From the NCBI GenBank assembly GCA_964474085.1, contig CAYYRJ010000009.1, positions 13,570-77,569 of the forward strand: 64,000 nt of DNA. The letters run 5' to 3'. Source of the stretch: an uncultured Planctomycetales bacterium (lineage in GTDB: Bacteria; Omnitrophota; Gorgyraeia; Zapsychrales; JANLHA01). This document shows positions 12,843-40,390 of the stretch, in pieces. Every line of letters begins with the position of its first letter. Position 1 is the stretch's first letter. Both the position numbers and the translations under genes were made by a program. The notes under the pieces are model-generated. The model was not told the origin of the DNA and ran no database searches. It worked only from the letters and a program-made list of their open reading frames with translations.

Positions 12843-12923
12843 GCCGATGCAGTCGTCCTTTTAAGGCGAATAGCGCCATAGAGGCGCCAAGCAATTGAGC
12901 CGAAAAAGGACGATTGCGTCGGC
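12843..12923. repeat. Family-2 structured repeat, copy a
   Basis: Core ttttaaggcgaatagcgccatagaggcgccaagcaattgagccgaaaaa enclosed by a roughly 21-bp stem gccgatgcagtcgtccttttt / aaaaaggacgattgcgtcggc with two G-T mismatches. Confidence 0.8.
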
Positions 12924-12936
12924 TAAACAATCATCT

Positions 12937-13060
12937 AGAGCGGCCCTTTGGGCCCTACGGTTTTGCGTAGGCCAAGCAGAAGCTTGGCTAATGCAAAATC
13001 CGGGTTGATTCTAACCTAAACGACAGGGGCTTTCAAGCTGATTAACCCGGATTTTGCATT
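12937..13060. repeat. Partial family-1 copy (3' module) with its own closing inverted repeat
   Basis: gcggccctttgggc...ggccaagcagaagcttggctaatgcaaaatccgggtt matches the 3' third of family 1. It is followed by aacccggattttgcatta, the exact complement of taatgcaaaatccgggtt. Confidence 0.7.
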
Positions 13061-13094
13061 AAAAAATGAAATACAAAATTTGGGATTAAAGCGA

Positions 13095-14111
13095 TTATTT
13101 GCCATAAACCCCAAAAGCACAAACCCGGTTGCGCCCGCCCTTTTTGGCGCGATACAAAGCCCAATCCGCTTTATCGATAAGTTCATTGACTTTTTTGCCG
13201 TCCTGCGGATAAACCGCAATCCCGATGCTGACGGTTGCCTTAGTCGACGTGTCAAATGCTTTGATCGTTGCCTGTTCAACGGCGAAACGGATACGCTCTG
13301 CAACACTCCCTGCAGAGACAAAATCCGTATCCGGCAACACAACGCAAAATTCCTCTCCGCCAAAGCGGCCGATAATATCAATTTCACGAATATTCGCTTT
13401 AATGATGGAAGCGATTTCCCGCAAAATCTGATCTCCCGTCAAATGCCCGTACTGATCATTAAAATGTTTAAAAAAATCAACGTCCACCATCAAAAACGCC
13501 ATGTGCGTCTTGTAAATCTGCGCTCGATTGCGCTCCTCTTCAAAGCGTTCGAGGACATACCGACGAGTATGAACCTCCGTCAAACTGTCGGTGATCGCAA
13601 GCCGTTCAATGTCTTGATAAAGCCGCACACGCCGAAGCGCCAAAGCAAATTGATTGGCCAAAATCACAACTTTTTCCTGTTGGCTTTCAGCCACATCACT
13701 TAAAGCCAAAACTCCAAGCTTGCGTCGCTGACCGCTCAAAGTCAGAAGCAGATACCCTCCCAGTTCTTTGTCCTTAATTTGCTCTTGCGCCAGCGGGTCG
13801 AGCAAGAGGCAATCGCCAAAATGCACACTTTCTCGGAGCTTGACTTTAAAGGCATAAAAAGTTTTTTCTTCCGAAAAACTTTTGGTCATCTCGCGCGTCA
13901 GATCATAAAGCGTAAAAATTTCTGCAACTTCGGTTTCCAAAACTTTTCGCCGCTCATCCAAACCTTTTTTGATCCGCAACAATTCTTCATGCTGGCTCTT
14001 AAAAAGCACAAGAGCATCCGTTTCTCGCCGTAAGATGTTTGCAATCGCCCAGCGCACGACAAAAATCACCACGGCTGTAAAAACAAAAAGTAAACTCACC
14101 ATAAAAATCAT
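13095..14111 (-). CDS. Diguanylate cyclase (GGDEF domain) with N-terminal TM and coiled-coil region
   Basis: RFGGEEFCVVLPDT GG(D/E)EF active-site motif and RYVLERFEEE upstream motifs. Confidence 0.8.
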   Translation of the reverse strand: MIFMVSLLFVFTAVVIFVVRWAIANILRRETDALVLFKSQHEELLRIKKGLDERRKVLETEVAEIFTLYDLTREMTKSFSEEKTFYAFKVKLRESVHFGDCLLLDPLAQEQIKDKELGGYLLLTLSGQRRKLGVLALSDVAESQQEKVVILANQFALALRRVRLYQDIERLAITDSLTEVHTRRYVLERFEEERNRAQIYKTHMAFLMVDVDFFKHFNDQYGHLTGDQILREIASIIKANIREIDIIGRFGGEEFCVVLPDTDFVSAGSVAERIRFAVEQATIKAFDTSTKATVSIGIAVYPQDGKKVNELIDKADWALYRAKKGGRNRVCAFGVYGK

Positions 14112-14117
14112 TTTATT

Positions 14118-15419
14118 CTATGCCTCTTTGGCAAAAACAACCTGATTGCGGCCGGATGCCTTGGCCTCATAAAGCGCCGCGTCCGCTTTCTGGACAAGAT
14201 CTTCTTTGGTATGCGCATCAACGGGGAAAGACGCAACTCCCAGAGAAACCGTAATGTTCGTTTTTTCGCGGCGCAAAATAATCGTTTGTGCCGCAATTCG
14301 TTTGCGGACCTCTTCAGCCAATTGGCCAGCTCTTCGCTTGGAACAATCCGGCAAAAGCACGCAAAACTCTTCCCCGCCATAACGGCAAACAATTTCTCCC
14401 GGCGCGCTAAACATATCCAAAAGAATAAGCGCAATGGTCTTAAGGACAATGTCCCCGGCGGTATGCCCAAAGCGATCATTGTATTTTTTAAAATAATCCA
14501 AATCGATCATCAGAAAAGACAACTGGCTTTCACTTCGCAAATGCCGGCTGATTTCAGCGTTTAACCGCTCAAGCAAATGCCGGCGCAAATACAAACCCGT
14601 CAAACTATCGCGGATCGCCAAATCCTCAACACGTTCATAAAGCTGCGCATTTTCTAAAGCGACCGCGCCAATGGCCCCGACCGTATTTAAAAAACGCAAA
14701 TCTTCCGTCGAAAAATGATGCTCGCTGTTACTATCGACCCGCAGCAATCCTACCGTCATTTCTCCGACGGACAATGGGACACTCATCAGGGAACGCACGT
14801 CCCGATGGTCCTGCGTTTGGACCTGCTGGGCATCAAAACGAAAATCGGTCTTTGTGTCTTCGATAAAAAGCGGTTTTAAGTTTTTGACCACCCATTGATC
14901 ATAGCTATCGCCTCTTTTGGCCTTGAGATTTAACGGCTCTTGATTGCGCAAGGACGCACCGATAGCCAGCTGGCGGTTGTTATTATTAAAAAAATAGACA
15001 ATAACCGTCATCTGCGGGTGTTTATAAACGCCATTAACTTCACTGGCAATCATTTGAGCGGTATCCGCAAGCGTAAAAGAGGCGCAGAGTTTTTCGGTCA
15101 GATTTTTTAGCAAGGCATAATTCGTAATCTTAATTTGCAAAGCATTATTAGCTTGCCGTTTCTGGACAATGTCCGCCTGCAAAAGATTAAGCCGCTCTTC
15201 GCATTCGCCGCGCTCTAAAGCAACAAGCATTTGACGGTTTGACAGAGAAATATACGAATAGACAAGATACCCGACGATAATCGATAAAGAAAATGCCAGA
15301 AAAATAAAAAACCGGGAGGCAAAATACCCTGCATAAAAAAAGAATCCAACGAGCGAAAACAACAACAGAATTATAAAAAAATGGGGTGATTGAGCGATTC
15401 GGCAAATTAATTTTTTCAT
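14118..15419 (-). CDS. Membrane-anchored GAF-GGDEF diguanylate cyclase
   Basis: Two N-terminal TM helices, a GAF-like middle region, and the RYGGEEFCVLLPDC GGDEF motif. Confidence 0.8.
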   Translation of the reverse strand: MKKLICRIAQSPHFFIILLLFSLVGFFFYAGYFASRFFIFLAFSLSIIVGYLVYSYISLSNRQMLVALERGECEERLNLLQADIVQKRQANNALQIKITNYALLKNLTEKLCASFTLADTAQMIASEVNGVYKHPQMTVIVYFFNNNNRQLAIGASLRNQEPLNLKAKRGDSYDQWVVKNLKPLFIEDTKTDFRFDAQQVQTQDHRDVRSLMSVPLSVGEMTVGLLRVDSNSEHHFSTEDLRFLNTVGAIGAVALENAQLYERVEDLAIRDSLTGLYLRRHLLERLNAEISRHLRSESQLSFLMIDLDYFKKYNDRFGHTAGDIVLKTIALILLDMFSAPGEIVCRYGGEEFCVLLPDCSKRRAGQLAEEVRKRIAAQTIILRREKTNITVSLGVASFPVDAHTKEDLVQKADAALYEAKASGRNQVVFAKEA

Positions 15420-15461
15420 TTTTTTCTCGTTAAATCACAAAAGCATCCCGTGCCTTAAGAA

Positions 15462-15690
15462 ATAAGGTTTAAAAAAAGACCCGTATTTTAACCCGGCTTT
15501 TGCATTAGCCTCGCTCCAACGAGGCCAAGCAAAAGCCGCCCAAAGGGCCGCATGTCTCGACACCGTCGAGACGTGCGGGGTTAACCTTGTCCCTGCGGGA
15601 CAACCAAAGGCAAATTTTGCATTTCCATTTTTGTGCGCGACGGATCGTCGCGCACAAGGTTGTAATGCAAAATTTGGGTTTAAGAGCGAG
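15462..15690. repeat. Family-1 structured repeat, copy B (inverted relative to copy A)
   Basis: Its reverse complement aligns to 163-360 at about 89%. Substitutions in the nested stem are compensatory: cggCttttgc/gcaaaaGccg versus cggAttttgc/gcaaaaTccg, and gcctcg/cgaggc versus gccaagc/gcttggc. Confidence 0.8.
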
Positions 15691-15698
15691 ATTAAAAA

Positions 15699-16802
15699 TC
15701 AGACAATCGTGTTTTCGGTCTTCTTGTCAAAAAAGTGGGCCTTGCTCATGTCCAGGACAAGGTCCATGTCGCGGTTAATTTCAGGACGGTCATGTGCATC
15801 AACGCGGGCAATAAAAGTATGTCGGCCGGTATTTAAATGAACCAGCACCTCAGAACCCATCGGCTCGACAACCTCGCAGGTGGCCACAATCGTATTTTCG
15901 GCCGTCGCCTGGGAAACAAAAAGCTTATCGTAAATATCCTGCGCCCGGATGCCAAAAACAATTTCTTTTCCTTCATAAGCGCTTATCTTTTTATACATAT
16001 CCTCGACGATCTTAACCTGAAACCGGCCTTCGTCAAAATAATATTTCCCGTCTTTGCTAATAATCCGGCCTTCCATAAAATTCATGGGGACTGACCCGAT
16101 AAAGCCCGCAACAAATTTATTCGCCGGCCGATCATAAGTAACAATCGGGTCAGCACATTGCAAAATCCGTCCGTCTTTCATCACCGCAATCCGATCGCCT
16201 AAGGTCATGGCTTCCGTCTGGTCATGCGTGACATAAATAAAAGTTGTTTGCAGCCGCAGACGCAGCTTATGAATCTCACTGCGCATTTGCACGCGCATTT
16301 TAGCGTCAAGATTGCTCAAAGGTTCGTCAAAAAGAAACACGCAAGGTTTTCGTACGATCGCGCGGCCTAAAGCCACCCGCTGATGTTCCCCGCCGGAAAT
16401 CTCACGCGGACGACGGTCCAAATATTTTTTAATTCCAAGGATCTCTGCAACTTCGTTGACCCGTCGGGTAATTTCTGCTTTCGGCAATTTACGAAGCTTA
16501 AGACCAAAAGCCATGTTTTCAAAAACCGTCATGTGCGGATAAAGCGCGTAATTCTGAAAGACCATGGCAATATTACGGTCTTTAGGGGGGACGTGATTAA
16601 CACAGCGATCACCGATCCAAATCTCGCCGGATGTCGCTTGTTCTAAACCGGCAATCATTCGCAAGGTCGTGGACTTGCCGCAACCTGAGGGGCCGACTAA
16701 AACCAAAAATTCTTTTTTTTCAATCGTAAAACTGACATTGTCGACGGCCAGAGATCCGCTGGGATAAAGCTTGCTGACATTCTTTAGACTGATCTGCACC
16801 AT
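15699..16802 (-). CDS. ABC transporter ATP-binding protein, MalK/UgpC/MsmK-like sugar-import ATPase
   Basis: Walker A GPSGCGKST, signature ISGGEHQRVAL, Walker B FLFDEPLSNLD, and a C-terminal TOBE-like domain. No adjacent permease or SBP. Confidence 0.85.
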   Translation of the reverse strand: MVQISLKNVSKLYPSGSLAVDNVSFTIEKKEFLVLVGPSGCGKSTTLRMIAGLEQATSGEIWIGDRCVNHVPPKDRNIAMVFQNYALYPHMTVFENMAFGLKLRKLPKAEITRRVNEVAEILGIKKYLDRRPREISGGEHQRVALGRAIVRKPCVFLFDEPLSNLDAKMRVQMRSEIHKLRLRLQTTFIYVTHDQTEAMTLGDRIAVMKDGRILQCADPIVTYDRPANKFVAGFIGSVPMNFMEGRIISKDGKYYFDEGRFQVKIVEDMYKKISAYEGKEIVFGIRAQDIYDKLFVSQATAENTIVATCEVVEPMGSEVLVHLNTGRHTFIARVDAHDRPEINRDMDLVLDMSKAHFFDKKTENTIV

Positions 16803-16811
16803 AATGTAAGC

Positions 16812-17753
16812 TTATACGCCCAAAAGCGCACGGATCGTGGTTCGGGCCGTATCCATGATGCCCTTTGATTTGGTGTAAAGCTTGTCGTATTCATTACTAA
16901 AAACGATATATTCCTGCTCAAACTCTTTGTCGCTTTGGGTGTCGAGCTTTTTAGGTTCCTTGATCTCCCGCCACAACAAAGAGAGCATCCGCTCAATACG
17001 CTCAATCTGGTCAATGCATCCTCTGTAATGCCGAAAAGATTTGCTGTCAGAAAGCGTCCCTAAAAAAGTTTTGGAAATATCATATCGCCATTTGGCTTCT
17101 TGATAATTCCACGAGCGAATCAAAAAATTCAACGTCTGCTCGTAAGCAAAATTCCTGTTTTTGATAATAAGCTCACGCAAAACCGAAGTCTTGATATTCA
17201 AAAATTCAGATCGCGCCCGATTAAGCGGAAAAGACCGGATACTTTTTGATATCTCGGGAAACCAATTGGCCAAAAGCGAATATGTCCCATACGTATCGAC
17301 AAGACTTTTAGCGCTGTATTGATTACCGGTACGAAAATCCCCGATGACAATGTCCGCGCTTGTCGTTTTGATAAACTCGGTCAAATTGCTATAAAACTCA
17401 ACGTCCTGCTCGACATAATCGATATCGCCGGGGATCTGGACGATCCGATCCGCTTCAGGATAATTATCAAGAATATGTCCCCAGCCGGCTAACCAGCTCT
17501 GACAGGTGTCGACCGACCAAGTTTGCACAACCTCCAAACTCGGATATCTTGGGTCCTTGATAAACGAGACCGCATCCTGCCGAATAATCGTATCCCGCGG
17601 GATAACGACAATCGGTTTAGGATCAATTTCCTTGCAACGATCCACGGTCCACCAAAAATACCACTCGCACTTTTTATTATTCTCATATCCCATATAGGGA
17701 AAAATAATGAGCGGTTTTGAATTTATAGCTTTCGCAACAGGTGGTTTACTCAT
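16812..17753 (-). CDS. Hypothetical protein, 313 aa; no function assignable
   Basis: ORF with no motif I can assign with confidence. Lies between the ABC ATPase and a GPH symporter, suggesting a role in sugar or compatible-solute handling. Confidence 0.4.
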   Translation of the reverse strand: MSKPPVAKAINSKPLIIFPYMGYENNKKCEWYFWWTVDRCKEIDPKPIVVIPRDTIIRQDAVSFIKDPRYPSLEVVQTWSVDTCQSWLAGWGHILDNYPEADRIVQIPGDIDYVEQDVEFYSNLTEFIKTTSADIVIGDFRTGNQYSAKSLVDTYGTYSLLANWFPEISKSIRSFPLNRARSEFLNIKTSVLRELIIKNRNFAYEQTLNFLIRSWNYQEAKWRYDISKTFLGTLSDSKSFRHYRGCIDQIERIERMLSLLWREIKEPKKLDTQSDKEFEQEYIVFSNEYDKLYTKSKGIMDTARTTIRALLGV

Positions 17754-17774
17754 ATTTTAAACCCCAGCAAGTTG

Positions 17775-19280
17775 TTATGTTTTTCCTCGTCGATTTTCTA
17801 ACTGTTTGCGGATATCGTAGGCCTTGTCTTCAGAGATTTCAAAGGTCATAATAACGAAAATCGCAATCAAGGAGGTTACAATCGGAATCCCCACATCACA
17901 GACGCGCATATAAAATAAAGCGTGCGCCGACTGATTGAGCCCTAATTTAACATCAAATCCCGTCGCGTTCATTAAAACGCCGCCTAAAATTGACGCTCCG
18001 GCGATGCCAAGCTTTTGTATCCACCAATAAATCCCGCTAAACATCCCTTCGCGACGCGTACCGGTTTGAAGTTCGTCAAGATCGCACACATCGGCAATCA
18101 TCGAACAAACAATTGTAAAAAGTGATCCCAAATGAAACGCCAAAAATGGCGCGGCAACCAAAAGCAAATACGGATATCTTGGATCATACCCAATCCATTT
18201 TAAAACATATCCAAAAATCGCCAGCGACATCGTAATCAAAAAAGCTTTCTTTTTTCCAAGTTTAGAGGATATCCATGCCGTTAAAGGAATCGCAAGAAAA
18301 GCGGTACAAACCGAACTTAAAGTTCCAAAAGCGCCCAATAAAGCTCCGCCGTTCTGATACATCAAATCCATCGTCGGTTGACCGCCAAAAACATAGAAAA
18401 AAACAACATACGCCGTGAAAGACGAGGCAAGCATAAATCCGTTAAAGATCAAAAACGTCACAATAACCAACTGAACAAACGGCCCGCACTGAAAAGACGT
18501 CACGCAATTGCCCCAAAGATCTTTGATAACACTTGCATAACCCTTTTCTTTAGGCGGTCTGGGCAAATTTCCGTAAATCTCTTTATTAAAAATAGCCGGA
18601 AGCACCCCAAAGGCTGTGATAAATATCCCGACGATAATCGCAATGACACGAACCGCATGCGTAATATCCGCAAAAGGAGAATTAAAATGAACAATCGTCC
18701 AATTCCAGATTTTAAGATCAATGACTTTGGATGTCATGATCAGCGGGATCCAAGGGACTATCATCCACACCGGTTGTGCAAAAAAACTAGCGTAAGCCTG
18801 CAGGCGCGTGCGTTCGTGATAGTCAGGTGTCATTTCATAACCTAAAGCAAGCCACGGAATCGAATAACAGGCAAAAGTCAGAACAAAAAGACACTGAATA
18901 CCTAAAACATACCAAAAATAATAATTTTCACTGCGACCCGGATAAAGCTGAAACATCGCGGCCAACAAAATTCCCGACGTGACTGCCCCAAATAATATCC
19001 AAGGCCGACGTCGTCCATGGCGCGTGCGCGTATTATCCGAACCATACCCGATCAAAGGATCTGAAAAAGCATCGAGAGCACGTGGGATAGCCCCAATAAA
19101 TCCAACCAAAGCAGGATTGACACCCAACCCCAGGTTCAAAACTAGAATCAATTGTCCGGCGGCCGCAGCAGCAAATTGATTGACAAAGGACCCCATGCCA
19201 TAAATGATTTTTTGAAAAAGAGGAACGCGATCCGCAGCGGCTGTCGTATGGTGGGTTGACTGATCTTTCACTTGTGCCAT
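17775..19280 (-). CDS. MFS transporter, glycoside-pentoside-hexuronide (GPH):cation symporter family (MelB-like)
   Basis: 12-TM profile, N-terminal GYGSDNTRTRHGRRRPW motif (the D-x-x-x-R-x-G-R-R-P GPH signature), 501 aa. Confidence 0.8.
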   Translation of the reverse strand: MAQVKDQSTHHTTAAADRVPLFQKIIYGMGSFVNQFAAAAAGQLILVLNLGLGVNPALVGFIGAIPRALDAFSDPLIGYGSDNTRTRHGRRRPWILFGAVTSGILLAAMFQLYPGRSENYYFWYVLGIQCLFVLTFACYSIPWLALGYEMTPDYHERTRLQAYASFFAQPVWMIVPWIPLIMTSKVIDLKIWNWTIVHFNSPFADITHAVRVIAIIVGIFITAFGVLPAIFNKEIYGNLPRPPKEKGYASVIKDLWGNCVTSFQCGPFVQLVIVTFLIFNGFMLASSFTAYVVFFYVFGGQPTMDLMYQNGGALLGAFGTLSSVCTAFLAIPLTAWISSKLGKKKAFLITMSLAIFGYVLKWIGYDPRYPYLLLVAAPFLAFHLGSLFTIVCSMIADVCDLDELQTGTRREGMFSGIYWWIQKLGIAGASILGGVLMNATGFDVKLGLNQSAHALFYMRVCDVGIPIVTSLIAIFVIMTFEISEDKAYDIRKQLENRRGKT

Positions 19281-19457
19281 TAAACTACCTCCAAATTGTT
19301 TATGAATGAAGCTCCAGGGCTTTATGGCCGTGGTCTTTCACGTTTCGAGATTCCGTTTAAGCGAATCCCGCCAGAAGAGCATCCCATCTACGTCTTAACA
19401 GAACGTGGTCTTCTGTTGCGGGATAAAACTCGCCGCCTAATTGTAAAGCAAGGCTGC

Positions 19458-19485
19458 ATTATAACAAAAAAACCACCCTGCACAA
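19458..19485 (-). promoter_or_regulatory. Sigma-70-like promoter for the GPH transporter gene
   Basis: On the minus strand: TTGTGC, a 16-nt spacer, then TATAAT. Followed by a roughly 170-nt leader before the ATG. Confidence 0.35.
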
Positions 19486-19540
19486 GAATTAACGCGGGAA
19501 GACGAATTACAGAAAATTTTAATTTCGACACTTACTGCCA

Positions 19541-20034: not shown

Positions 20035-20036
20035 TT

Positions 20037-20903: not shown

Positions 20904-20923
20904 AAAAACTTTTCCTTATGAAA

Positions 20924-22325: not shown

Positions 22326-22610
22326 CTACTTTTTACTCTCAGCTTTCGCCGCAGGCGCACTCGCACAGCCGCAACCACCGGAGTGGCAATGCCCGCCGCG
22401 GGTACTTTTAGCCGGAGATGATGACTTATTCTTATAATCGGTTTCGTAAAAGCCGGTTCCTTTAAAAATAATCCCACTGCCTCCGCCGATGTGACGGACC
22501 AAAGACATCTTGGCGCATTTGGGACATTTTTTCAGTTTCTTTTCGGTCATCGACTGCAAAGCATCAAAAACATGCCCGCAGGACTCGCATTCATATTGGT
22601 AGGTTGGCAT
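22326..22610 (-). CDS. FmdB-family zinc-ribbon protein
   Basis: MPTYQYECESCGH...CPKC with a CxxC...CxxC arrangement, and a Gly/Cys-rich C-terminal tail. Confidence 0.7.
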   Translation of the reverse strand: MPTYQYECESCGHVFDALQSMTEKKLKKCPKCAKMSLVRHIGGGSGIIFKGTGFYETDYKNKSSSPAKSTRGGHCHSGGCGCASAPAAKAESKK

Positions 22611-22629
22611 ACTAATCTCCGTTAAAAAA

Positions 22630-22729
22630 TTCTCCTGAACTTGCCGCTTTGGGCATCCCTTTTTCGGCTCAATTGTTTGGCGCCTCTATGGCGCAATTCG
22701 CCTTAAAAGGGCTGCCCAAATCAGCAAGC
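22630..22729. repeat. Family-2 structured repeat, copy b (reverse orientation)
   Basis: Core ggctcaattgtttggcgcctctatggcgcaattcgcctt inside a stem cttgccgctttgggcatccctttt / aaaagggctgcccaaatcagcaag with 3 mismatches. Confidence 0.8.
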
Positions 22730-22742
22730 TTAAATAACAAAT

Positions 22743-23870
22743 TTACTTAAACACATTCTTAAATTTATCCGCCAAAGAATCTGGCGAAACTTTTTCGCCG
22801 GTCAGCTTTGCAAATTCCTCGAGCAATTTGCGCTGCTCGCCCGTCAAATGCTCGGGCACATTGACCATGACCTTCACATATTGCTCACCCTGCCCGCCGC
22901 CGTGCAAATCCGGCATCCCTTTTCCCTTCAAACGAAACGTGCGTCCGCTTTGCGTTCCGGCGGGAATTTTCATCGCGACATTTCCGCTTAAAGTCGGCAC
23001 CGAGAGCTCGCCGCCTAAAGCCGCAACAACAAAACTGACCGGTAATTCAAAATGCAAATCATTACCGTTTCGTTCATAAAGCGAATGCCGACGCACAAGA
23101 ATATAAAGATACAAATCCCCCGGCCCAGCGGCCCCGACTTCCCCTTCGCCTTTGACCCGCAAACGCGTGTCATTGTCTACTCCGGCGGGAATATTCACAT
23201 CAATATTGCGGGTCACTTTCACAACGCCCTGACCGTGGCACTGCGGACAAAACTCGGTAATGATTTTTCCCTCTCCTCGGCAATCGGAACAGGTCTGAGC
23301 CATGCGGAAAAATCCATTAGACATGACCACTTGGCCTTGACCTTTGCAGGTTGTACACGTTTTGGCCTTGCTACCGGGCTTAGCCCCGCTACCGTTACAC
23401 GTCGTACAATGCTCATGACGGGGAACTTTGATTTTTTTCTTCAGTCCGCTGTAAGCCTCTTCGAGGGTGATTTCAACTTCGTATTGGATGTCGCGTCCCC
23501 GACGGGCACGGGTAGAACGGCCGCCGCCGCCACCCATCATACTTTCACCAAAAAGACTGCCTAAAATATCCCCTAGGCCCGACTCGCCAAAAATACTGCT
23601 AAAGTCCGCGCCCTTGAAAATATCTTCAGACGTATAGCGCTGATCAATACCCGAATGCCCGTACTGATCATACATTTGACGTTTTTGCGGGTCAGACAAA
23701 ACCCCGTAAGCTTCGGAAATTTCTTTAAAGCGTTCTTCAGCTTCTTTTTTTTCAGCTTCAGGAACACGATCAGGATGAAATTTCAGCGCCATCGAGCGAT
23801 ACGCTTTTTTAATCTCGGTAGCGTCCGCGCCCTTAGCAACTCCAAGAATTTCGTAGTAGTCTTTTTTCAT
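22743..23870 (-). CDS. dnaJ: Chaperone DnaJ
   Basis: J-domain (YYEILGV...HPDR), G/F region and four CxxCxGxG zinc-finger repeats. Confidence 0.9.
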   Translation of the reverse strand: MKKDYYEILGVAKGADATEIKKAYRSMALKFHPDRVPEAEKKEAEERFKEISEAYGVLSDPQKRQMYDQYGHSGIDQRYTSEDIFKGADFSSIFGESGLGDILGSLFGESMMGGGGGRSTRARRGRDIQYEVEITLEEAYSGLKKKIKVPRHEHCTTCNGSGAKPGSKAKTCTTCKGQGQVVMSNGFFRMAQTCSDCRGEGKIITEFCPQCHGQGVVKVTRNIDVNIPAGVDNDTRLRVKGEGEVGAAGPGDLYLYILVRRHSLYERNGNDLHFELPVSFVVAALGGELSVPTLSGNVAMKIPAGTQSGRTFRLKGKGMPDLHGGGQGEQYVKVMVNVPEHLTGEQRKLLEEFAKLTGEKVSPDSLADKFKNVFK

Positions 23871-30538: not shown

Positions 30539-30550
30539 AAAATTCTCCCT

Positions 30551-31831
30551 TCAAACTTTTAGACTAAATTTTTGCAATAGTCCTGCAAATTTTTTGGGCA
30601 ATGAAGCCGACAATCGCACCGCATCAGCGTCGTAGGCGATCGCATGGACATGCCCTTCTTTATGCGCAAGATTAACCAAGTCCATACGATCAAGCGGCAG
30701 CGCAACTTCTATGGTTTCCATCAAAGAAGCAAGCTGAAATTCAATTTCAGCTAACAAACCAGAAATATTTTCTGCGCTTAAGGCCGAAATTGCAACTGGA
30801 TTTTTAAACGACTGTTTGATTTGTGAAACAACGCTTCTGTCGCTTAACTGGTCGATCTTGTTTAAAACAGTAATCATTGGCTTGTCATGCGCGTCAAGCT
30901 CACGCAAGACCGCCATGACGGAATCATAAAGATTACGAAATTTTGGGTGGCTGACATCTAAAACATGAACAAGCAAATCCGCGCTGGCCGTTTCTTCCAG
31001 AGTTGCTTTAAACGATTCGATCAAATGGTGCGGCAATTCGTGCAAAAACCCGACGGTATCCGAAAGAATAATTTTTTGGTGATTGGGCAAAACCAATTGG
31101 CGCGACAAAGAATCCAGCGTTGTAAAAAGTCCATTGTGCGTCACCTGCCCGGCATGAGTCAGGGTGTTTAAAAGAGTGGATTTGCCTGCATTCGTGTAGC
31201 CTACAAGCGAAACAAGCGGCACCCCGTCGTCCTGGCGTTTTTTCCGCCGCAACAAACGGTCCTCACTCACATCTTTTAAATCGTGACGTAAACGATCCAC
31301 CCGTTCACGGATTTTGCGCCGGTCCATCTCAAGTTTTGTTTCGCCCGGGCCCATCGTGCCGATGCCGCCGCCTAAACGGGACATTTCAATTCCATGACCG
31401 ACTAAACGCGGCAAAAGGTATTCCAACTGCGCAAGCTCAACCTGCATTTTGCCTTCCTGGCTTTTGGCCCGTCGGGCAAAAATGTCTAAAATCAACTGCG
31501 TGCGGTCAATGACCTTTTTGCCAATCGCTTCTTCAAGATTACGCAATTGATTACCCTTTAAATCATGATTAATAATCACCGTGTTAATATCTTTGGCGAC
31601 GCACAGATCGGTAATTTCCTTGACCTTGCCTTCGCCTAAAAACAAACTCGGAGTAATCTGGTCAAGCCGGGTCAAAACTTTGTCGACGACAACGCCGTAA
31701 CAGGCGGTGACTAATTCTTCCATCTCAAGGGCCAAATCGTCAAACGTCCAATTGCTGCGCTCTGTTTTAAGCTGGACGACGACCAACAAAACTTTTTCGA
31801 GTGATTTCATATTTTCCTTAATATCCGCCAT
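30551..31831 (-). CDS. hflX: GTPase HflX
   Basis: GGIGTMGPGETKLE motif and G-domain GYTNAGKSTL. Start reset to ATG at 31829-31831; the ORF track used an upstream TTG. Confidence 0.9.
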   Translation of the reverse strand: MADIKENMKSLEKVLLVVVQLKTERSNWTFDDLALEMEELVTACYGVVVDKVLTRLDQITPSLFLGEGKVKEITDLCVAKDINTVIINHDLKGNQLRNLEEAIGKKVIDRTQLILDIFARRAKSQEGKMQVELAQLEYLLPRLVGHGIEMSRLGGGIGTMGPGETKLEMDRRKIRERVDRLRHDLKDVSEDRLLRRKKRQDDGVPLVSLVGYTNAGKSTLLNTLTHAGQVTHNGLFTTLDSLSRQLVLPNHQKIILSDTVGFLHELPHHLIESFKATLEETASADLLVHVLDVSHPKFRNLYDSVMAVLRELDAHDKPMITVLNKIDQLSDRSVVSQIKQSFKNPVAISALSAENISGLLAEIEFQLASLMETIEVALPLDRMDLVNLAHKEGHVHAIAYDADAVRLSASLPKKFAGLLQKFSLKV

Positions 31832-31940
31832 GTGCAAATTTTATTTACTGACTTGAGAAGTCCTTTTAAGGCGAATGGCGCCATAGAGGCGCAAAACAAT
31901 TGAGCCTAAAAGGACTTCCCAAGTCGGCTTAACTTGCACA
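31831..31940. repeat. Family-2 structured repeat, copy c
   Basis: Core ttttaaggcgaatggcgccatagaggcgcaaaacaattgagcctaaaa inside stem gacttgagaagtcctttt / aaaaggacttcccaagtc, extended by tgtgcaa...ttgcaca. Spans from the hflX ATG (31831) to the miaA stop. Confidence 0.8.
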
Positions 31941-32861
31941 TCGCGTTAATATATTTAATATTGGTCCGGCGAGATCTTCGGCGTTGTCTTTATCATCAGC
32001 CTCTAGCCAGTTAATCCGTTTATCCTTACGAAACCACGTCAATTGCCGTTTGGCCAAATTACGCGTATTTTTCTTTATCAATTCTTTTGCGGCCGCAAGA
32101 TCGTATTGACCGTTTAAATAGGCCAGAATTTCGCCCACGCCAATCATCCGGCTGGCGGTCAAACTCAATTTCCGGCCCCGGATTGCCTTAACTTCGTCAA
32201 CCAAACCGTCAGAAAACATTTTTTCGACACGCCTGTTGATCCGCTCATAGAGCTTTTCACGTTCCCGATCAAGTCCAAAAATCACGACGGGACAATGCCC
32301 CCAAAGTCCACAGCGTTTTTTTTGCAACTCTGATATCGGGATTTTTGTCGACTCAAAAACTTCCAAAGCCCGGACAATGCGCCGGCTGTCATTAGCATGA
32401 ATCTTGGATGCGGCCTGAGAGTCAATATTTTTTAACTGCTGATACAAAACGCCGGGGCCCTGTGTTGAGGCGATCTTTTGCAGCTTTTGGCGCAAATCCA
32501 TATCCACCCCTTGAGTTTCAAAAATCCCGTCGAGCAAAACCTGCACATACATCCCGCTACCTCCGACGACAAGAGGATGTTTTCCTTTTGCCATAATCGT
32601 GTCGATAGCCAAACGCGCCGCCTTATTAAACATCGCCACATCAAATTTTTCCTCAACACAAACAACATCCAACAAATGATGGGCAACACTTTTACGTTCA
32701 TCTAAGGAAGGCTTGCTCGTCGCAATCGAAATTTCTCGATAAACCTGCATCGAATCGCACGAAACAATTTCGCAAGGCAAATGACGCGCCAGCGCCAGGG
32801 CAACATCCGTTTTTCCGACCGCTGTTGCTCCGACTAAAAAAATTATGGTTTGGGGATTCAC
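31929..32861 (-). CDS. miaA: tRNA dimethylallyltransferase
   Basis: P-loop GATAVGKT and DSMQVY motif. Confidence 0.9.
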   Translation of the reverse strand: MNPQTIIFLVGATAVGKTDVALALARHLPCEIVSCDSMQVYREISIATSKPSLDERKSVAHHLLDVVCVEEKFDVAMFNKAARLAIDTIMAKGKHPLVVGGSGMYVQVLLDGIFETQGVDMDLRQKLQKIASTQGPGVLYQQLKNIDSQAASKIHANDSRRIVRALEVFESTKIPISELQKKRCGLWGHCPVVIFGLDREREKLYERINRRVEKMFSDGLVDEVKAIRGRKLSLTASRMIGVGEILAYLNGQYDLAAAKELIKKNTRNLAKRQLTWFRKDKRINWLEADDKDNAEDLAGPILNILTRCAS

Positions 32862-32867
32862 GCGTTG

Positions 32868-33641: not shown

Positions 33642-33717
33642 GCAGACATGATAACAAAAACAGGAGGGTTTATCTATGGGAATTTCATTAGAAAAAATCT
33701 TAAGCTTGTCGGGAACG

Positions 33718-33749
33718 TTTAAATTCAGGCCGCGCGGCCTGAATTTAAA
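33718..33749. terminator. Palindromic hairpin downstream of the metB-like gene
   Basis: tttaaattcaggccgcg/cgcggcctgaatttaaa forms a perfect 16-bp palindrome between convergently terminating transcription units. Confidence 0.45.
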
Positions 33750-33758
33750 GCAGAAAGA

Positions 33759-34901: not shown

Positions 34902-34980
34902 GGTTTAGGATTCTCCTTGATTATTTTCTAACGCTAAAACTGTTAGACACGATAAACTGCTGACGAGGATTTGTCAATTG

Positions 34981-35114
34981 TGATCTTTTGTCGGTTGTTA
35001 ACAAAGCCTTCGTCGCTCGAACAGTCCTCGCTCTAGTCGCTTACTCTTATTGAAAACTTTAGGTAAGCGCCTAGGCTGCGGAACTCGCTTTGGAAGGCAT
35101 TGTTAACAACCGAC
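34981..35114. repeat. Family-3 long-hairpin repeat, copy a (subfamily 1)
   Basis: Arms ccttcgtcgctcgaacagtcctcgc and ggctgcggaactcgctttggaagg flank an inner stem gtcgcttac/gtaagcgcc. Outer stem tcggttgttaacaa/ttgttaacaaccga is unique to this copy. Confidence 0.8.
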
Positions 35115-35119
35115 CAGAT

Positions 35120-35794
35120 CTATTTATTTGCCACAAAAACAAAACCATTCGCCTTGCCGCTTAAAGGGTCTACTGCCCTAGACGTCATTTTTTCTTTTTC
35201 TTCGGGCAAGCATTCCTCTTCACATTTAGCCACCAATTTCCACGTCGGTTTTGAACGATGATGCACCTTGGCCAGCGGCTCCTGGCCTAAAAAACAGCCC
35301 TTGGCAAAAGAGACAAAATCGGTTTCGCTGACATTAAGAAGCATTTCATCTTTATAATCAACGCCCAAAAGGGCCATATTATTTTTCAGACGAAAACGGG
35401 TAAATTCCTCGTCGCTAACCGAAGCTGGCAAGTCGTCGGCTGTCAAAACAAGCTGACCGCACTTTTGCGCAATGACAAACTCCGTCGGACTTGGGCGATA
35501 CGAGCCTTCCAAATCAAAATAGACAAACAAATTCTCCTGGCTGAGCACTGTCTTGCTTAAACGGGCAAAACGTTCCAAATGCAAAAGAACTGCAGGCAAA
35601 AATGCCTCTTCGATAACCAGCAAAAACTTTTCATCGCTGACGCGGACTTGGTCAAAAGTGGCAATGATACGGCCATGAATATTAACAAAAGCGTTTTGCG
35701 GTTTATCGAGCGAATTTGTCGTTAACCCGTTTAAAAATGCTTGCGGGCAAGGCGCGACACTTAATACTTTTTTTGTTGTTTTATAAAGACGCAT
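35120..35794 (-). CDS. YgfZ/GcvT-like folate-binding Fe-S cluster assembly/repair protein
   Basis: C-terminal KGCFLGQE matches the K-G-C-[FY]-x-G-Q-E signature of the YgfZ (COG0354) family. Confidence 0.6.
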   Translation of the reverse strand: MRLYKTTKKVLSVAPCPQAFLNGLTTNSLDKPQNAFVNIHGRIIATFDQVRVSDEKFLLVIEEAFLPAVLLHLERFARLSKTVLSQENLFVYFDLEGSYRPSPTEFVIAQKCGQLVLTADDLPASVSDEEFTRFRLKNNMALLGVDYKDEMLLNVSETDFVSFAKGCFLGQEPLAKVHHRSKPTWKLVAKCEEECLPEEKEKMTSRAVDPLSGKANGFVFVANK

Positions 35795-36572
35795 TTATTT
35801 GACCACAGGCTTTTAGATAATCGCGAATAATCTGTTTATGGTCAAAAGCAAAGTTGTACTTTAAAATTTTATCCGCGCTGATAATCTGCGCGCCCTTAGC
35901 ATCATCGCCGGATCGCAGCGTGCCTTTTCCCTGTGCCACAAAAACGGTCGCAATCGTCTGAAAGCGCGGATCCCGGCAAGGGTCGGAATAGGTGTGAAAT
36001 TGTTTTAAATTTTTTAACTCTAAATTTGTTTCTTCTTTCGTCTCGCGCACTGCGGCATGTTCAAGCGATTCACCGTTATCGACAAACCCGCCGGGCAAAG
36101 CAAACCCAAACGGCGGATTGGTCCGTTCAATGACAACGAGGCCGCCTTTATAATGGATAATAATGTCCACCGTCGAGTAGGGGCCGCAGCTTAAATCTTC
36201 CTGTACATGGCGAATATACCCATAAACTTGGCTTTCAAATAAAAGCAAAGTCTGTTTGTCTTCAACGGCCAAAACCATTGTCTTGATCGCCCCCGGATAA
36301 GCACGGCAAAAACGCAAAATTTCCTGTGCCAAAATTTTAGCCACTGCGATAGGCGGAAATTCTTCCTTTATCCCTACAGCGGGAAAAACAACTTTTGTTT
36401 TTTTCTCTCTCTTAGCTTTAATAAAAATATTTCGAAACGCCCGGCGCAGCGAAAGCTCCGTTGGCTTTCCTTTTATTAATGTCGAAATAAAAGATGGGTC
36501 TTTTGGAAACTTGAGGGCATCAGCTAAAACAATCTTAAACTCCGTGGCTTTGACTAACACTTTTCTCTCCAA
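35781..36572 (-). CDS. NUDIX hydrolase with an N-terminal domain of unknown function
   Basis: Nudix box GGFVDNGESLEHAAVRETKEETNLEL in the C-terminal half. Confidence 0.7.
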   Translation of the reverse strand: MERKVLVKATEFKIVLADALKFPKDPSFISTLIKGKPTELSLRRAFRNIFIKAKREKKTKVVFPAVGIKEEFPPIAVAKILAQEILRFCRAYPGAIKTMVLAVEDKQTLLLFESQVYGYIRHVQEDLSCGPYSTVDIIIHYKGGLVVIERTNPPFGFALPGGFVDNGESLEHAAVRETKEETNLELKNLKQFHTYSDPCRDPRFQTIATVFVAQGKGTLRSGDDAKGAQIISADKILKYNFAFDHKQIIRDYLKACGQINASL

Positions 36573-37992
36573 TCTCCCGCGCTAAGGCCAACGCCTGCTC
36601 TTTGGTTTTTACTTTTCCTGTCGCTTGCGCTTCTTCGACGGCTTTGAGAATTTTCCCAAACAAAGCCGAAGGTTTAAGCTTTAACTTTTTGATCAAGTCG
36701 TTTCCGTCGATCAAACGGACAAACGGTTTTTCTTTTTTGGCCGCAAAAAAACGACGGATAATTTCCAGACAAATTTTTTGATGATGTTCTTCATCCTCTT
36801 TCGTCGACAAAACTCCGCGCGTCGAACGCTGGTCAGCCATGGACAAAAGCGCAATCGACGCGGCTTCTTCTTTGGTGTCCCTCAAATAACGAAACCACGC
36901 TTTGTCACTGGGATTTTTAAAATTCGACAAGTAGCCCGGACGCAAATGCCAAAGGACCATATCTTCTAAAATGATCCGCTCCTTAGTCGAAAGTTTAAGG
37001 AGCTTGGCAACAGAGCGCACGATACCTTTACCGACATGTTCGTGCCCATGAAAAGACATGCGGTCTTTTTCTTTTTTGCGTGTCGCGGGCTTTCCGATAT
37101 CATGCAAAAGTGCGGCAAGCTTTAGAATTCCCCGTCGAGTACGGGTCCCGGCTAAAGGCTCATTGAGATACTCAATAATTTCCAAATTATTTTTATGTTC
37201 TTCCAAAACCTTTTCTAATTGCACGACGGTTTCCAAAGAATGCGGCCAGACGTCAAGATGATGATACCCACCTTGGGTTATGCCATACATCACAGTGATC
37301 TGCGGAATCACTTTTTTTAAAAGCCCGATCTTATCTAAAAGCGCCAGATTTTCGGCAGCAGAAGGCGATTGCAAAACTTTAAAAAGTTCATCTAAAATCC
37401 GCTCCCGGGCAACTTGACCAAGCAAGTCAGCGTCTTTTTTAATTTGCCCTAAAGTTTTCGTTTCAACATTAAACCCCAACTGCGCACGCAAACTAAACGC
37501 GCGCAAAAGCCGCAAAGGGTCTTCCACAAATATTTTGTTCCCAACCATGCGAATCCGTCGGGCTTTAAGATCTTTGAGAGCTCCGCAAAAATCTCGGACA
37601 ACTTCCGTAAAATTCTCTAAAAGGTCAAGGTCGTTGAGTTTAACGGTTAATGTATTGAGCGTAAAATCGCGGTGCAAAATGTCGGCTTTAAGGGTTGGCG
37701 CACGAAAATCCGCAAAATCATAGGTGGAAATTTTGCCCTGTTGTTTTTTGACAACACGCCCGCAGCCGCGCTCTTTGTCGAGCAGAACAAACGCGCCCTT
37801 GATCTGTTTGGCAAAAGTTTTCGAAAACGAAACCGCATTTTTTGCTAGGGCAAAGTCAAAGTCTTGGCCAGTTTTACCGACGAGCGCATCGCGCAAAAAG
37901 CCGCCGACCAAAAAAAGATCAACATTCTTTTGGCGGGCGAGTTTTTGCAAAATTACCAAATGAGGATATTCGGCCAAAGTTGGCATAGGCAA
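36535..37992 (-). CDS. cca: CCA-adding tRNA nucleotidyltransferase / poly(A) polymerase family with HD domain
   Basis: Pol-beta head LFLVGGFLRDALVGK...DFDFAL and an HD motif HDIGK. Confidence 0.8.
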   Translation of the reverse strand: MPMPTLAEYPHLVILQKLARQKNVDLFLVGGFLRDALVGKTGQDFDFALAKNAVSFSKTFAKQIKGAFVLLDKERGCGRVVKKQQGKISTYDFADFRAPTLKADILHRDFTLNTLTVKLNDLDLLENFTEVVRDFCGALKDLKARRIRMVGNKIFVEDPLRLLRAFSLRAQLGFNVETKTLGQIKKDADLLGQVARERILDELFKVLQSPSAAENLALLDKIGLLKKVIPQITVMYGITQGGYHHLDVWPHSLETVVQLEKVLEEHKNNLEIIEYLNEPLAGTRTRRGILKLAALLHDIGKPATRKKEKDRMSFHGHEHVGKGIVRSVAKLLKLSTKERIILEDMVLWHLRPGYLSNFKNPSDKAWFRYLRDTKEEAASIALLSMADQRSTRGVLSTKEDEEHHQKICLEIIRRFFAAKKEKPFVRLIDGNDLIKKLKLKPSALFGKILKAVEEAQATGKVKTKEQALALAREIGEKSVSQSHGV

Positions 37993-37997
37993 GAAAA

Positions 37998-38408
37998 TTA
38001 TTCGGTAGCGCTAAAAATAGAAGCTTTCTTTAAAACTTCCTCGTCGACAAAAATCGGCGCTTTGGCACGCACGGCAAGGGCAACGCCATCGGAAGGACGG
38101 GCGTCCACGGTTTTTATCTTGCCGTCTTTGTCTTTTAAAAGGATCTTGGCATGAAAAGTGCTGTTAACTAATTTATCAATAACCAGCGAATCAACTTTTG
38201 CGCCCAAACTGTCGATCGACAAAAACAATAGATCATGCGTCATCGGACGGGGCGTTTCGACGTTGGAGAGTTTCATCTTGATGCTGGAGGCCTCCAAAAA
38301 ACCTATGACAATAGGAAATTGCCGCTCGCCGTCTTTTTCCTTAAGGACAATGATCTGGTCCTGTCGTTTTTCATCAATAATAATTTTGCTTAATTCGACT
38401 TGTATCAT
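37998..38408 (-). CDS. Bifunctional nuclease (BFN/DUF151) domain protein
   Basis: RPSDGVALAVRAKAPIFV motif typical of the DUF151 family. 136 aa. Confidence 0.6.
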   Translation of the reverse strand: MIQVELSKIIIDEKRQDQIIVLKEKDGERQFPIVIGFLEASSIKMKLSNVETPRPMTHDLLFLSIDSLGAKVDSLVIDKLVNSTFHAKILLKDKDGKIKTVDARPSDGVALAVRAKAPIFVDEEVLKKASIFSATE

Positions 38409-38412
38409 ATCT

Positions 38413-38895
38413 TTAAACTCCTTTTTTCTTTAAGGAGGATTTTTCACGCTCCAAAATAACCTTAAGTTCATTCATAAACTGATTGACGTCGCGAAACTGC
38501 CGATAGACAGAAGCAAAACGCACATAAGCAACTTCGTCGAGCGAAGCAAGCTTTTCCATAATAATTTCGCCGATGGCCGTCGCGCTGACTTCACGCTCGT
38601 ATTTTTTTTGTATCGTTCTTTCAATCTCAGCTGTGATTTGTTCAATCTTATCGACGCTAATCGGGCGCTTTTCGCAAGCCTTGACCAAACCGGCAATGAT
38701 TTTTGTCCGGTCAAACGCCTGTCTGCGGTTATCGCGTTTGATCACCATCAGCGGCACTTGCTCGATGTATTCGTAGGTCGTAAAACGCTTCTGGCATTTG
38801 AGGCATTCCCGACGCCGGCGGATAGATTTTCCTTCCGCGCACAAACGCGAATCAACGACCTTGGTTTCCTTATAATGACAGGCGGGACATTTCAT
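38413..38895 (-). CDS. nrdR: Transcriptional repressor NrdR
   Basis: N-terminal zinc ribbon MKCPACHYKETKVVDSR...CLKC plus an ATP-cone. Confidence 0.9.
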   Translation of the reverse strand: MKCPACHYKETKVVDSRLCAEGKSIRRRRECLKCQKRFTTYEYIEQVPLMVIKRDNRRQAFDRTKIIAGLVKACEKRPISVDKIEQITAEIERTIQKKYEREVSATAIGEIIMEKLASLDEVAYVRFASVYRQFRDVNQFMNELKVILEREKSSLKKKGV

Positions 38896-38914
38896 TGCTG
38901 TTCTCGTTTCTAAT

Positions 38915-39030
38915 AATGGCGGTTAGGGATGAGCTTCCAAAGCGAGTTCCGCAGCCTAGGCGCTTACCTAAAGCTCTCAATAAGGGTAAGCGACTAGTGC
39001 GAGGACTGTTTGAGCGACGAAGGTCACTCC
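38915..39030. repeat. Family-3 long-hairpin repeat, copy b (subfamily 1, reverse orientation)
   Basis: Core nearly identical to copy a in reverse complement. Unique outer stem aatggcggttagg/cctaaccgccat. Confidence 0.8.
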
Positions 39031-39045
39031 TAACCGCCATCGCAA

Positions 39046-40284
39046 TCATAAATTCGGATACAACACAAATTCCTTGGTCAATTTTAAAACATCTGCCTTA
39101 ACTTGAGCCAGTTTCACTTCATCGCTATGATTGACGATTGCCGCATCAATCAAGTCTGCGACCTGCTGCATTTGTTTTTCTCGCATCCCGCGTGTCGTTA
39201 GGGCGGGTGTGCCGATACGAATTCCGCTGGTCACCATAGGACTGGCTGTATCAAAGGGAATCAAGTTTTTGTTAACCGTAATATTGACCTTATCCAAAAT
39301 TTCAGACGCTTCTTTGCCGGTGACATTTTTAGGACGCAGATCCACCATAAAAAGATGATTATCGGTCCCTCCGGCGACAATTCGAAAACCCAAGCTACCC
39401 AGCGCCAAAGACAAAGCTTTACTATTTTTGATCACCTGGGCCTGATATGTTTTAAACTCCGGCTCAAGCGCTTCCTTAAAAGCCACCGCCTTGGCTGCAA
39501 TAACATGCATCAAGGGCCCGCCTTGAATGCCAGGAAAAATTGCCGAGTCAATGCGTTTGGCAAATTGTTCCCTGCATAGAATCATCCCGCCCCGAGGTCC
39601 GCGCAATGTTTTGTGCGTTGTCGTCGTGACAAACTCGGCATACGGCACAGGATTCGGGTGAAGCCCGGCAGCGACAAGACCGGCGATATGCGCCATGTCC
39701 ACAAAAAGACAAGCGCCGACACTATCACAAATTTCTCTAAACTTCTTAAAATCCAGCGTCCGCGAATACGCGGATGCGCCGGCAATAATCATCTTCGGTT
39801 TGTGTTCCTTGGCCAAAGCGGTCACGTCATTCATATCGATCATTTCCGTCGACGGATTGACTTTGTAAGTGACCACATTATAGGTTCGTCCCGAAAAATT
39901 CATTTTATGCCCATGCGTCAAGTGTCCGCCACAAGCCAAATCCAGCGCTAAGACCGTGTCTCCGGGATTGATAGCAACATTGTACACAGCATTATTGGCT
40001 TGAGAACCGGAATGCGGCTGGACATTGACATGCTCTGCGCCAAAAAGTTTCTTTGCCCGGTCAATGGCCAATTGCTCAACGACGTCAACATGCTCGCAAC
40101 CGCCGTACCAGCGTTTGGAAGGATAGCCTTCCGCATATTTATTGGTCATGACCGACCCTTGCGCTTGCAATACCGCCTGAGAAACAATATTTTCCGACGC
40201 AATTAATTCTAAATTATCCCGCTGACGAGCTAATTCATTTTTAATCGCCTGAAAAACTTCAGGGTCAACATTTTTTAAATCCAT
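39046..40284 (-). CDS. glyA: Serine hydroxymethyltransferase
   Basis: Canonical SHMT sequence. Start reset to ATG at 40282-40284 ([11 protein letters not shown]...) with an AAGAGG RBS. The longer ORF-track start would lie inside repeat 2d. Confidence 0.95.
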
Positions 40285-40307
40285 GCTCTGCCTCTTTCTA
40301 AAATTAT

Positions 40308-40390
40308 TCCGTAAATTACTGATTAAGGAAGTCCTTTTTAGGCTCAATTGTTTCGCGCCTCTATGGCGCTATTCGCCTTAAAAGGACTTC
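40308..40390. repeat. Family-2 structured repeat, copy d (reverse orientation)
   Basis: Core ggctcaattgtttcgcgcctctatggcgctattcgcctt inside a perfect 20-bp stem ctgattaaggaagtccttttt / aaaaggacttccttaatcag. Confidence 0.85.

Follow-up and report, generated by a model that had tools for sequence, protein, structure and literature searches.

The 64,000-nt stretch of contig CAYYRJ010000009.1 analysed here (the window) carries four copies of Family-2, a palindromic repeat unit of about 85–105 nt with no open reading frame (ORF), in which a conserved, asymmetric centre tops a long stem whose sequence varies from copy to copy. Family-2 is real and abundant in its clade, and is undescribed as far as the searched libraries show. 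We lean, by somewhat more than an even chance, towards regarding it as a lineage-restricted, non-autonomous mobile palindrome of a Candidatus Omnitrophota clade, similar to MITEs (miniature transposable elements bounded by inverted repeats) and REPINs and with a selected asymmetric centre. The comparative signals are clean: covariation along a 20-bp stem, gain, loss and replacement of the element, randomised orientation and a strand-specific wobble bias.

A 39-nt core pattern, AAGGCGAATNGCGCCATAGAGGCGCNAANCAATTGAGCC, has four exact matches in the window and none in 100 dinucleotide-preserving shuffles of it. The inner 15-mer of the core recovers the identical four sites, and 36 of the 39 positions are invariant over the four copies, in agreement with the original prediction, made from this DNA alone, of a core more than 90% conserved at four sites in both orientations. 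Each core tops a long hairpin with a stem of 18–26 bp. The features, with positions numbered over the whole window and scores from the covariance model R1, are as follows.

12842..12924, + strand: Family-2 copy 1, ROK/GGDEF spacer; 5' arm 12842-12862, core 12863-12901, 3' arm 12904-12924; 100.9 bits
22638..22730, - strand: Family-2 copy 2, dnaJ/zinc-ribbon spacer, sense to the operon; core 22666-22704; 99.4 bits
31848..31927, + strand: Family-2 copy 3, inner hairpin in the miaA/hflX spacer, antisense; core 31868-31906; 94.8 bits
31826..31945, no strand assigned: outer inverted repeat around copy 3, CGCCATGTGCAAATT ... AACTTGCACATCGCG; arms 31826-31840 with 31931-31945
40319..40399, - strand: Family-2 copy 4, rpiB/glyA spacer, sense; core 40341-40379; 106.6 bits

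With its filters off, R1 found no copies in the window beyond these four; its weaker matches there are sibling hairpin families. Whichever strand is folded, the hairpins have energies of -42 to -52 kcal/mol and z-scores between -6 and -10. Pfam identified the flanking genes as ROK/GGDEF, DnaJ/zinc-ribbon (FmdB-like), MiaA/HflX and RpiB/SHMT, bearing out the gene context first proposed (ROK/GGDEF, dnaJ/fmdB, miaA/hflX and rpiB/glyA). All of these genes lie on the minus strand; relative to the operons, the sense copies are therefore 2 and 4 and the antisense ones 1 and 3. Copy 1, between the GGDEF stop at 13095 and the ROK start at 12823 and with its core antisense to both genes, has two G·T wobbles in its stem on the + strand and is identical in its orthologue L005 (L numbers label other loci analysed). 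The arms of copy 4 are perfect over 20–21 bp. Both stems quoted as examples in the original prediction were correct on re-reading. The statement that stems share no sequence between copies beyond their base was mistaken: copies 3 and 4 share the stem sequence GAAGTCCTTTT, and a consensus emerges from 79 aligned copies. Copy 3 belongs to a subfamily marked by G at the first variable position together with CTAAAAGG (relatives L006, L008, L074 and L075), and with its outer inverted repeat it is a composite element. No tRNA or tmRNA was found in the window.

Scanning the GTDB representatives, one genome per species, with CGAATNGCGCCATAGAGGCGC returned 78 loci, all except one chance match in seven metagenome-assembled genomes (MAGs), of which four are labelled Candidatus Omnitrophota and three are third-party annotation (TPA) assemblies labelled 'Planctomycetales'. 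Genome-wide, exact-core copies number 84 in these seven species-level MAGs (30, 16, 14, 12, 5, 2 and 1) and the window taken together, and the same core is thus conserved well outside the window. Loci of five of the MAGs match the window at 92%, 88%, 85%, 80% and 76% DNA identity, which places the window organism in the same genus-level group, although the window comes from none of these assemblies. A gapped pattern of the junction had no match in viral contigs and 53 in the JGI metagenome collection, where four are true copies (L079, L080, L093 and L110) and the others either match by chance or represent a conserved 57-nt stretch of a different kind. That stretch, GGCGAATGGCAAAGGCGTAGGGCATCCCAGCCAACC...AAACAATTGAGCC, has no flanking stem and occurs in peat and soil metagenomes (L087, L089, L092, L096, L108, L112, L114, L117, L120 and L125); it has no relation to Family-2 and could be coding sequence or some other conserved element. 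A literature search for palindromic repeats in Omnitrophota returned nothing, and we know of no interspersed palindromic repeat described for this uncultured and poorly known phylum.

The anatomy of the element was read from alignments of 75–79 copies, the main one fitted to the model and hence to structure. The outer stem is 18–33 bp long (mean 23.7), and the arm consensus TTAGCCGATTTGGAAGTCCTTTT, obtained from 79 aligned copies, is the parent of most stems. Its inner segment, CCUUUU/AAAAGG, is followed by a 2x2 purine-rich loop and then by a GGC/GCC helix. In the asymmetric internal loop GAAUN faces NAAACAAUUGA, and a tandem G·A may form beside the GGC/GCC helix; a 5-bp apical helix, GCGCC/GGCGC, carries the loop AUAGA. 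In the model-fitted alignment standard pairs fill 97.7% of cells, where column shuffles give 76% and slid partners no more than 51%, and all 20 of the 20 outer-stem pairs have changed on both sides (458 compensatory cells); none of 500 shuffles reached the observed values of pairing or covariation. RNAalifold on a plain MAFFT alignment agrees, with 19 of 28 pairs compensatory. The pattern first noticed in four copies, a conserved centre on variable arms, is real, and in the outer stem it is pairing, not sequence, that is kept.

In a divergent copy (L064 7885-7990) two compensatory pairs turn the apical helix into GTCCC/GGGAC; the loop differs and both junction strands are kept, which supports the apical helix. 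Of the two small alternative hairpins originally proposed for the core, gcgcc-ataga-ggcgc accordingly stands, and the GGCG/CGCC pairing was ruled out, since this variant compensates the apical helix and cannot form the alternative. A kink-turn was ruled out on reading the sequence: the tandem G·A directly abuts the GGC/GCC helix, with no 3-nt bulge. The antisense core contains TCAANNNNTT, which presumably resembles a site for IHF; the next purine position is variable, and we set this likeness aside.

Orthologous spacers that lack Family-2 identify the unit that comes and goes. L023 is filled and L030 empty between matching flanks, and what L030 lacks is the entire hairpin, TTAGCC...GGCTAA. At L039 the hflX/miaA spacer corresponding to copy 3 is about 20 nt long and has no stem. 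The rpiB/glyA spacer, home of copy 4 in the window, is 18 nt and empty in L149-L153 (RpiB 77% identical) and is filled in L147/L148 (RpiB 86% identical), in the same orientation and with arms that have diverged but are compensated. Presence and absence thus alternate with clean boundaries in three comparisons (L023/L030, window/L039 and window/L149-L153), and because the empty spacers contain no arms, the arms belong to the element and were absent before the core arrived. Loss can also be partial: L023 and L030 share a half-deleted copy, lost from the apical loop onward.

Further signs of mobility come from comparisons between loci. Young subfamilies have near-identical arms at different loci, for example the copy 3 subfamily or the 129-nt composite in JANPFV; the arms are terminal inverted repeats, conserved in young subfamilies and diverged in old copies. 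The proC/mtnP spacer holds a sibling-family element in L046 (CAZWOH) and Family-2 in three other species (L002, L025 and L067), and the dnaJ spacer of L133, beside an identical zinc-ribbon protein, has an unrelated hairpin at the site of copy 2. The original prediction had argued against a mobile element from the lack of conserved termini. That argument fails in the face of the presence/absence polymorphism, the young subfamilies, copy numbers from 1–5 to 30 per MAG and sibling replacement at one site. At a minimum of 15 loci, that of copy 3 among them, Family-2 is enclosed by an outer inverted repeat, CGCSRTGTGCAAGTT/AACTTGCACAYSGCG, with TTAA or TA at its flanks. The outer repeat GTGCAAGTT...AACTTGCAC also encloses unrelated inner hairpins (L006 1983-2067, L061 306-392 and L068 1239-1335), and it seems to be a palindromic family of its own, with cargo that varies.

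A census by exact pattern overstates the invariance of the core: L017-3158 and L067-3760 have one or two loop changes, and the core of L147/L148 has six changes in 52 nt. Copy 4 of the window was compared with L147, which was found through its protein. Identity is 46/52 (88%) in the core and about 75% in the arms, 89% in the 5' flank of glyA and 62% at third codon positions of rpiB. The difference between 88% in the core and 62% at rpiB third codon positions means that the centre is under purifying selection without being invariant; the arms evolve nearly at the synonymous-site rate while staying paired. Separately, L132 1377-1479 (ENA ERZ4216102) has flanks identical to window 22590-22770 and three substitutions confined to the core (GGCGTAT; CCCAACAATTCAGCC), two of which strike both sides of the proposed A·G pair; coverage is about 3x and error is possible.

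Copies persist at their sites and turn round in place. When orthologous sets were defined by flanking protein clusters, 44 of the 84 copies fell into 16 sets. Orientation relative to the shared neighbour gene was inverted in 17 of 34 orthologous pairs and in 8 of the 14 whose neighbour proteins are 90–98% identical, so that orientation is already randomised at the smallest divergences sampled; all inversions were seen between species. In the dnaJ spacer the element points the same way in the window (copy 2), L034 and L016, and the opposite way in L049. The arm mismatches of L049 (GCTGATTT paired with AAAGCGGC) move with its core, which shows inversion of the hairpin as a whole. Switching of the template between inverted repeats is documented as a one-step origin of compensatory changes at several bases, of longer stems and of inverted loops (PMC8794818), and template switching during replication appears the likeliest cause of Family-2 inversion.

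To read strand polarity, arm mismatches were scored symmetrically on the core-sense strand. Non-Watson–Crick arm positions comprised 89 G·T, 15 A·C and 60 others, and the excess of G·T over A·C was present in copies sense to their genes (40 versus 6) as well as in antisense copies (25 versus 3). Among mismatches one substitution away from a Watson–Crick orthologue, that is, derived in place, the ratio was 31 to 3 overall, 14 to 1 in antisense copies and 14 to 2 in sense copies. Since a G·T read on one strand appears as A·C on its complement, such a bias marks the strand that must fold, and its independence of neighbouring gene direction indicates that it is the core-sense strand that has to fold. 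Several causes of the polarity were rejected. A plain mRNA hairpin would reverse the bias in antisense copies, in which it is unchanged; deamination of the non-template or lagging strand is ruled out by the same bias in sense and antisense copies; and copying from arm to arm should leave no bias. This leaves either a single-stranded form linked to the core or a core-sense RNA together with very rapid flipping.

Between these, DNA is slightly favoured over RNA as the folded form, because no promoter-like site was found upstream of the hairpins and because there are precedents for repeats read as single-stranded DNA (ssDNA). The ends of IS200/IS605 elements with TnpA are a precedent for reading of folded ssDNA. 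REP repeats are read strand-specifically as folded ssDNA, with bulges and loops as recognition determinants (PMC8266576), and NTS hairpin repeats are read as ssDNA in one orientation, with sequence and structure both needed (PMC11893778). No terminator-like site was called at copies 1-3, which have no U-tract, and the consensus 3' flank is A-rich, not T-rich. Of 60 classifiable copies, 50 lie between co-directional genes, 29 sense and 21 antisense, with no fixed orientation relative to the gene.

A cis-acting structured RNA in operon mRNAs, spread by transposition and serving as an intercistronic stabiliser or processing site whose internal loop binds an RNA-binding protein, is a possibility that we take seriously while thinking it probably the wrong one. 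The core-sense transcript would be functional, and inversion would toggle copies between 'on' (sense) and 'off' (antisense). Covariation through G·U intermediates is a classic RNA signature, such a role suits the position of most copies, which lie between co-directional genes and follow a stop codon by a few to tens of nt, before the next ribosome-binding site, and the purine-rich junction with its tandem G·A is like many protein-binding RNA loops. The division into 29 sense and 21 antisense copies speaks against it, although with orientation randomised among close species the present orientation may not reflect the state under selection. The wobble polarity, equally strong in antisense copies both in total and among changes derived in place, speaks against it as well, a plain mRNA hairpin predicting the opposite there, and the missing upstream promoter-like site, U-tract and Rfam match also count against an RNA module. 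A self-cleaving ribozyme, riboswitch or intrinsic terminator, suggested by a compact conserved core in a stable helix near genes, is scarcely credible given that no Rfam family matched at threshold, that copies occur in both orientations, that the 3' sequence is A-rich and that the apical helix and loop are replaceable. Rfam returned no matches at gathering thresholds, and E-value searches with the window and with copy 4 alone gave nothing meaningful, the weak matches being generic microRNA-precursor hairpins at less than half the gathering score; the original reading that hammerhead, twister and pistol signatures are lacking agrees with this, as no ribozyme or other Rfam family matched.

Family-2 might instead be a functionless selfish or relic palindrome, its arms kept paired by template switching and its cores kept alike by gene conversion among about 100 copies. 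Template switching does make compensatory changes and loop inversions without selection (PMC8794818), inversion is frequent, and the arms change faster than the neighbouring non-coding flank (about 75% versus 89% identity). This explanation is nonetheless improbable: new mutations should yield G·T and A·C equally, which neither the full count nor the changes derived in place show; the excess of core over synonymous identity in an orthologue found through its protein points to constraint; and in a 45-nt core, conversion would have no more than about 20 nt of homology to either side of a mutation to work with. Far less probable still is the proposal that the 45-nt core is itself the mobile part, inserting into the loops of pre-existing hairpins, one of the two readings originally offered. 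Inside the window the arms do look copy-specific, Family-2 can sit centred in the larger palindrome GTGCAAGTT/AACTTGCAC that elsewhere holds other contents, and different families occupy the same spacer across species. When we asked whether the stem pre-exists at empty sites, however, the orthologous spacers (L030, L039 and L149-L153) proved to lack the whole hairpin, arms included, which contradicts the proposal for the inner arms; moreover, most arms derive from one consensus, young copies share arm sequence, and no armless core was found except as a deletion derivative.

The reading of Family-2 as a mobile palindrome with a selected centre has its own difficulties. No partner protein was identified around the copies, and a phmmer search with E. 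coli RayT against the six-frame translation of 0.9 Mb of flanks gave no RAYT-like match at E<=10. No autonomous parent element was seen, in an analysis that made no dedicated search for one. Old copies have lost the conservation of their ends, an unusual state for the substrate of a transposase. There may be a TA-type target duplication; the flanks TTA...TAA or TTAA...TTAA are self-palindromic and the junction of the lone close empty site shows one TTA, so that with palindromic flanks and only one close filled/empty pair a duplication is not demonstrable. Copies found without the exact pattern carry 1–6 changes, and a pattern search therefore inflates core invariance. Inversion of the whole element is shown at one locus, the other flipped pairs having no shared mismatch and being uninformative. 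The same polarity would also arise if flipping greatly outpaced substitution and selection acted on a core-sense RNA. Finally, orthologues of a small GIY-YIG gene considered as a partner (below) occur at L136, L137 and L139 without a Family-2 copy nearby.

On the favoured reading, the inserted unit is the whole hairpin, that is, the arms TTAGCCGATTTGGAAGTCCTTTT with their complement and the asymmetric centre. It inserts into short operon spacers, where copies can persist across species; after insertion the arms diverge fast yet stay complementary, with the centre held by purifying selection. Template switching across the arms would invert the hairpin in place and copy one arm from the other. 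A candidate protein would read the asymmetric centre on the folded core-sense strand, most simply as ssDNA or a cruciform arm, the candidate recognition segments being GGCGAAU and AAACAAUUGAGCC. We advance only tentatively, and think it rather unlikely, the further idea that Family-2 and its sibling families are substrates of one clade-specific protein (a nuclease, transposase or RNA-binding protein) that reads the folded single strand.

Searches for such a protein covered the surroundings of the copies. Clustering of 530 flanking ORFs for a recurrent, REPtron-like neighbour yielded only syntenic housekeeping groups; genes with Family-2 on both sides are proC, pyrC, pyrB and a nucleoside phosphorylase-like gene. 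Exact-protein look-ups for the RpiB, ROK and GlyA proteins of the window gave no match. Among 79 copies there are 11 instances of the tetranucleotides GTAG, CTAC, CGTC and GACG no farther than about 14 nt from a stem end, at most four per tag and side; a GTAG or CGTC tag was counted in 5 of the 79, and such tags have no fixed position relative to the stem. A query with E. coli YhbQ (GIY-YIG) recovered two small UPF0213-type genes 0.1–0.5 kb from a copy in JANPFV and JACKFI:

L033 ~259-570, reverse strand: small single-domain GIY-YIG gene near a Family-2 copy
L040/L140 3001-3312: small single-domain GIY-YIG gene near a Family-2 copy

These genes are one orthologous locus, ispE-tRNA-Gln-GIY-YIG-glmU-prs, and the GIY-YIG gene is a weak partner lead. 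In JACKFI a HepT/MNT toxin–antitoxin pair is inserted beside it.

The junction GCGA[AG]U / U[UC]GAGC recurs in at least two sibling families of the same genomes. A second repeat family has the same architecture as Family-2, with cores in the window at 38942-39015(+), 44980-45057(+), 42020-42097(-) and 35015-35088(-); its hairpins of about 125–140 nt have a copy-specific outer stem of 22–25 bp, a conserved interior AA GCGAGTTCCGCAGCC ... GCGAGGACTGTTYGAGC GAC and an inner helix that covaries; copies point either way, and the family is present in L017 and L046 too. At window 3860-3930(-), in a hairpin at about 3839-3951, the Family-2 junction (taaaGGCGAATtg ... ccTTTGAGCCgaa) carries a larger, different apical domain, and this shared junction under a different apical domain suggests a superfamily defined by the junction motif. 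Two further hairpin-forming repeats, ggccctttgggcc... and aatgcaaaatccggg ... cccggattttgcatt, lie to the right of copy 1 (window 12940-13075) as weak R1 matches.

The repeat also has a practical side. Many MAG and Logan contigs end exactly at the approximately 55-nt shared core plus inner stem (L010, L020, L031, L043, L050, L053, L059 and L060), so that Family-2 fragments metagenome assemblies of these organisms, and orientation polymorphism could add to the breaks. The contig of L146 ends at the rpiB stop.

More than once, the study of interspersed palindromic repeats (REP, ERIC, Correia and NTS) has brought new enzymes to light and changed ideas of what shapes operon expression and the dynamics of genomes. 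The present data make testable the part of template switching in hairpin upkeep, the choice between ssDNA and RNA as the working form, and the search for a partner by phyletic profiling. If Family-2 and its siblings do serve one protein, this would be a repeat–protein partnership on a par with REP–RAYT or NTS–Ssn, with the recognition module at the top of the hairpin and not in the stem, and turnover in place would be fast enough for an evolutionary on/off toggle of the flanking cistrons.

Family-2 appears to work like REP/REPIN repeats, ERIC/Correia-type MITEs and NTS repeats without having their defining sequence features. With REP/REPIN–RAYT systems it shares high-copy intergenic palindromes kept at orthologous sites, long hairpins and both orientations; it differs in having no GTAG/CGTC tag at a fixed position and no RAYT in 0.9 Mb, in a unit of about 85–105 nt against 20–40 nt for REPINs, and in that REPINs conserve the arms (REPs) and vary the spacer, the reverse of Family-2. 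ERIC/IRU and Correia elements resemble Family-2 as imperfect palindromes of about 100–150 nt that occur in transcribed spacers in both orientations without coding capacity, with AT-rich, TA-type flanks and presence/absence polymorphism, and a conserved central part has been described for ERIC. The Family-2 sequence is unrelated to theirs, its old termini are unconserved, and it has no known cognate insertion sequence (IS). Neither a strong strand-specific wobble polarity nor orientation randomised at orthologous sites is known to have been described for ERIC/Correia-type families. NTS/Ssn systems likewise involve hairpin repeats in hundreds of copies around genes (NTS), and a small GIY-YIG gene lies near Family-2 in two genomes; the NTS unit, however, is about 28 nt with a conserved and required stem sequence, whereas the Family-2 arms vary, and the Omnitrophota GIY-YIG protein matches UPF0213 (BH0048-like) and not the cd10448 group named for Ssn. 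Template-switch evolution (PMC8794818) is a mutational process and not an element family, and does not by itself predict a polarity of G·T over A·C. What distinguishes Family-2 is the combination of a selected asymmetric centre on fast-evolving arms, randomised orientation at orthologous sites and a strand-specific wobble bias.

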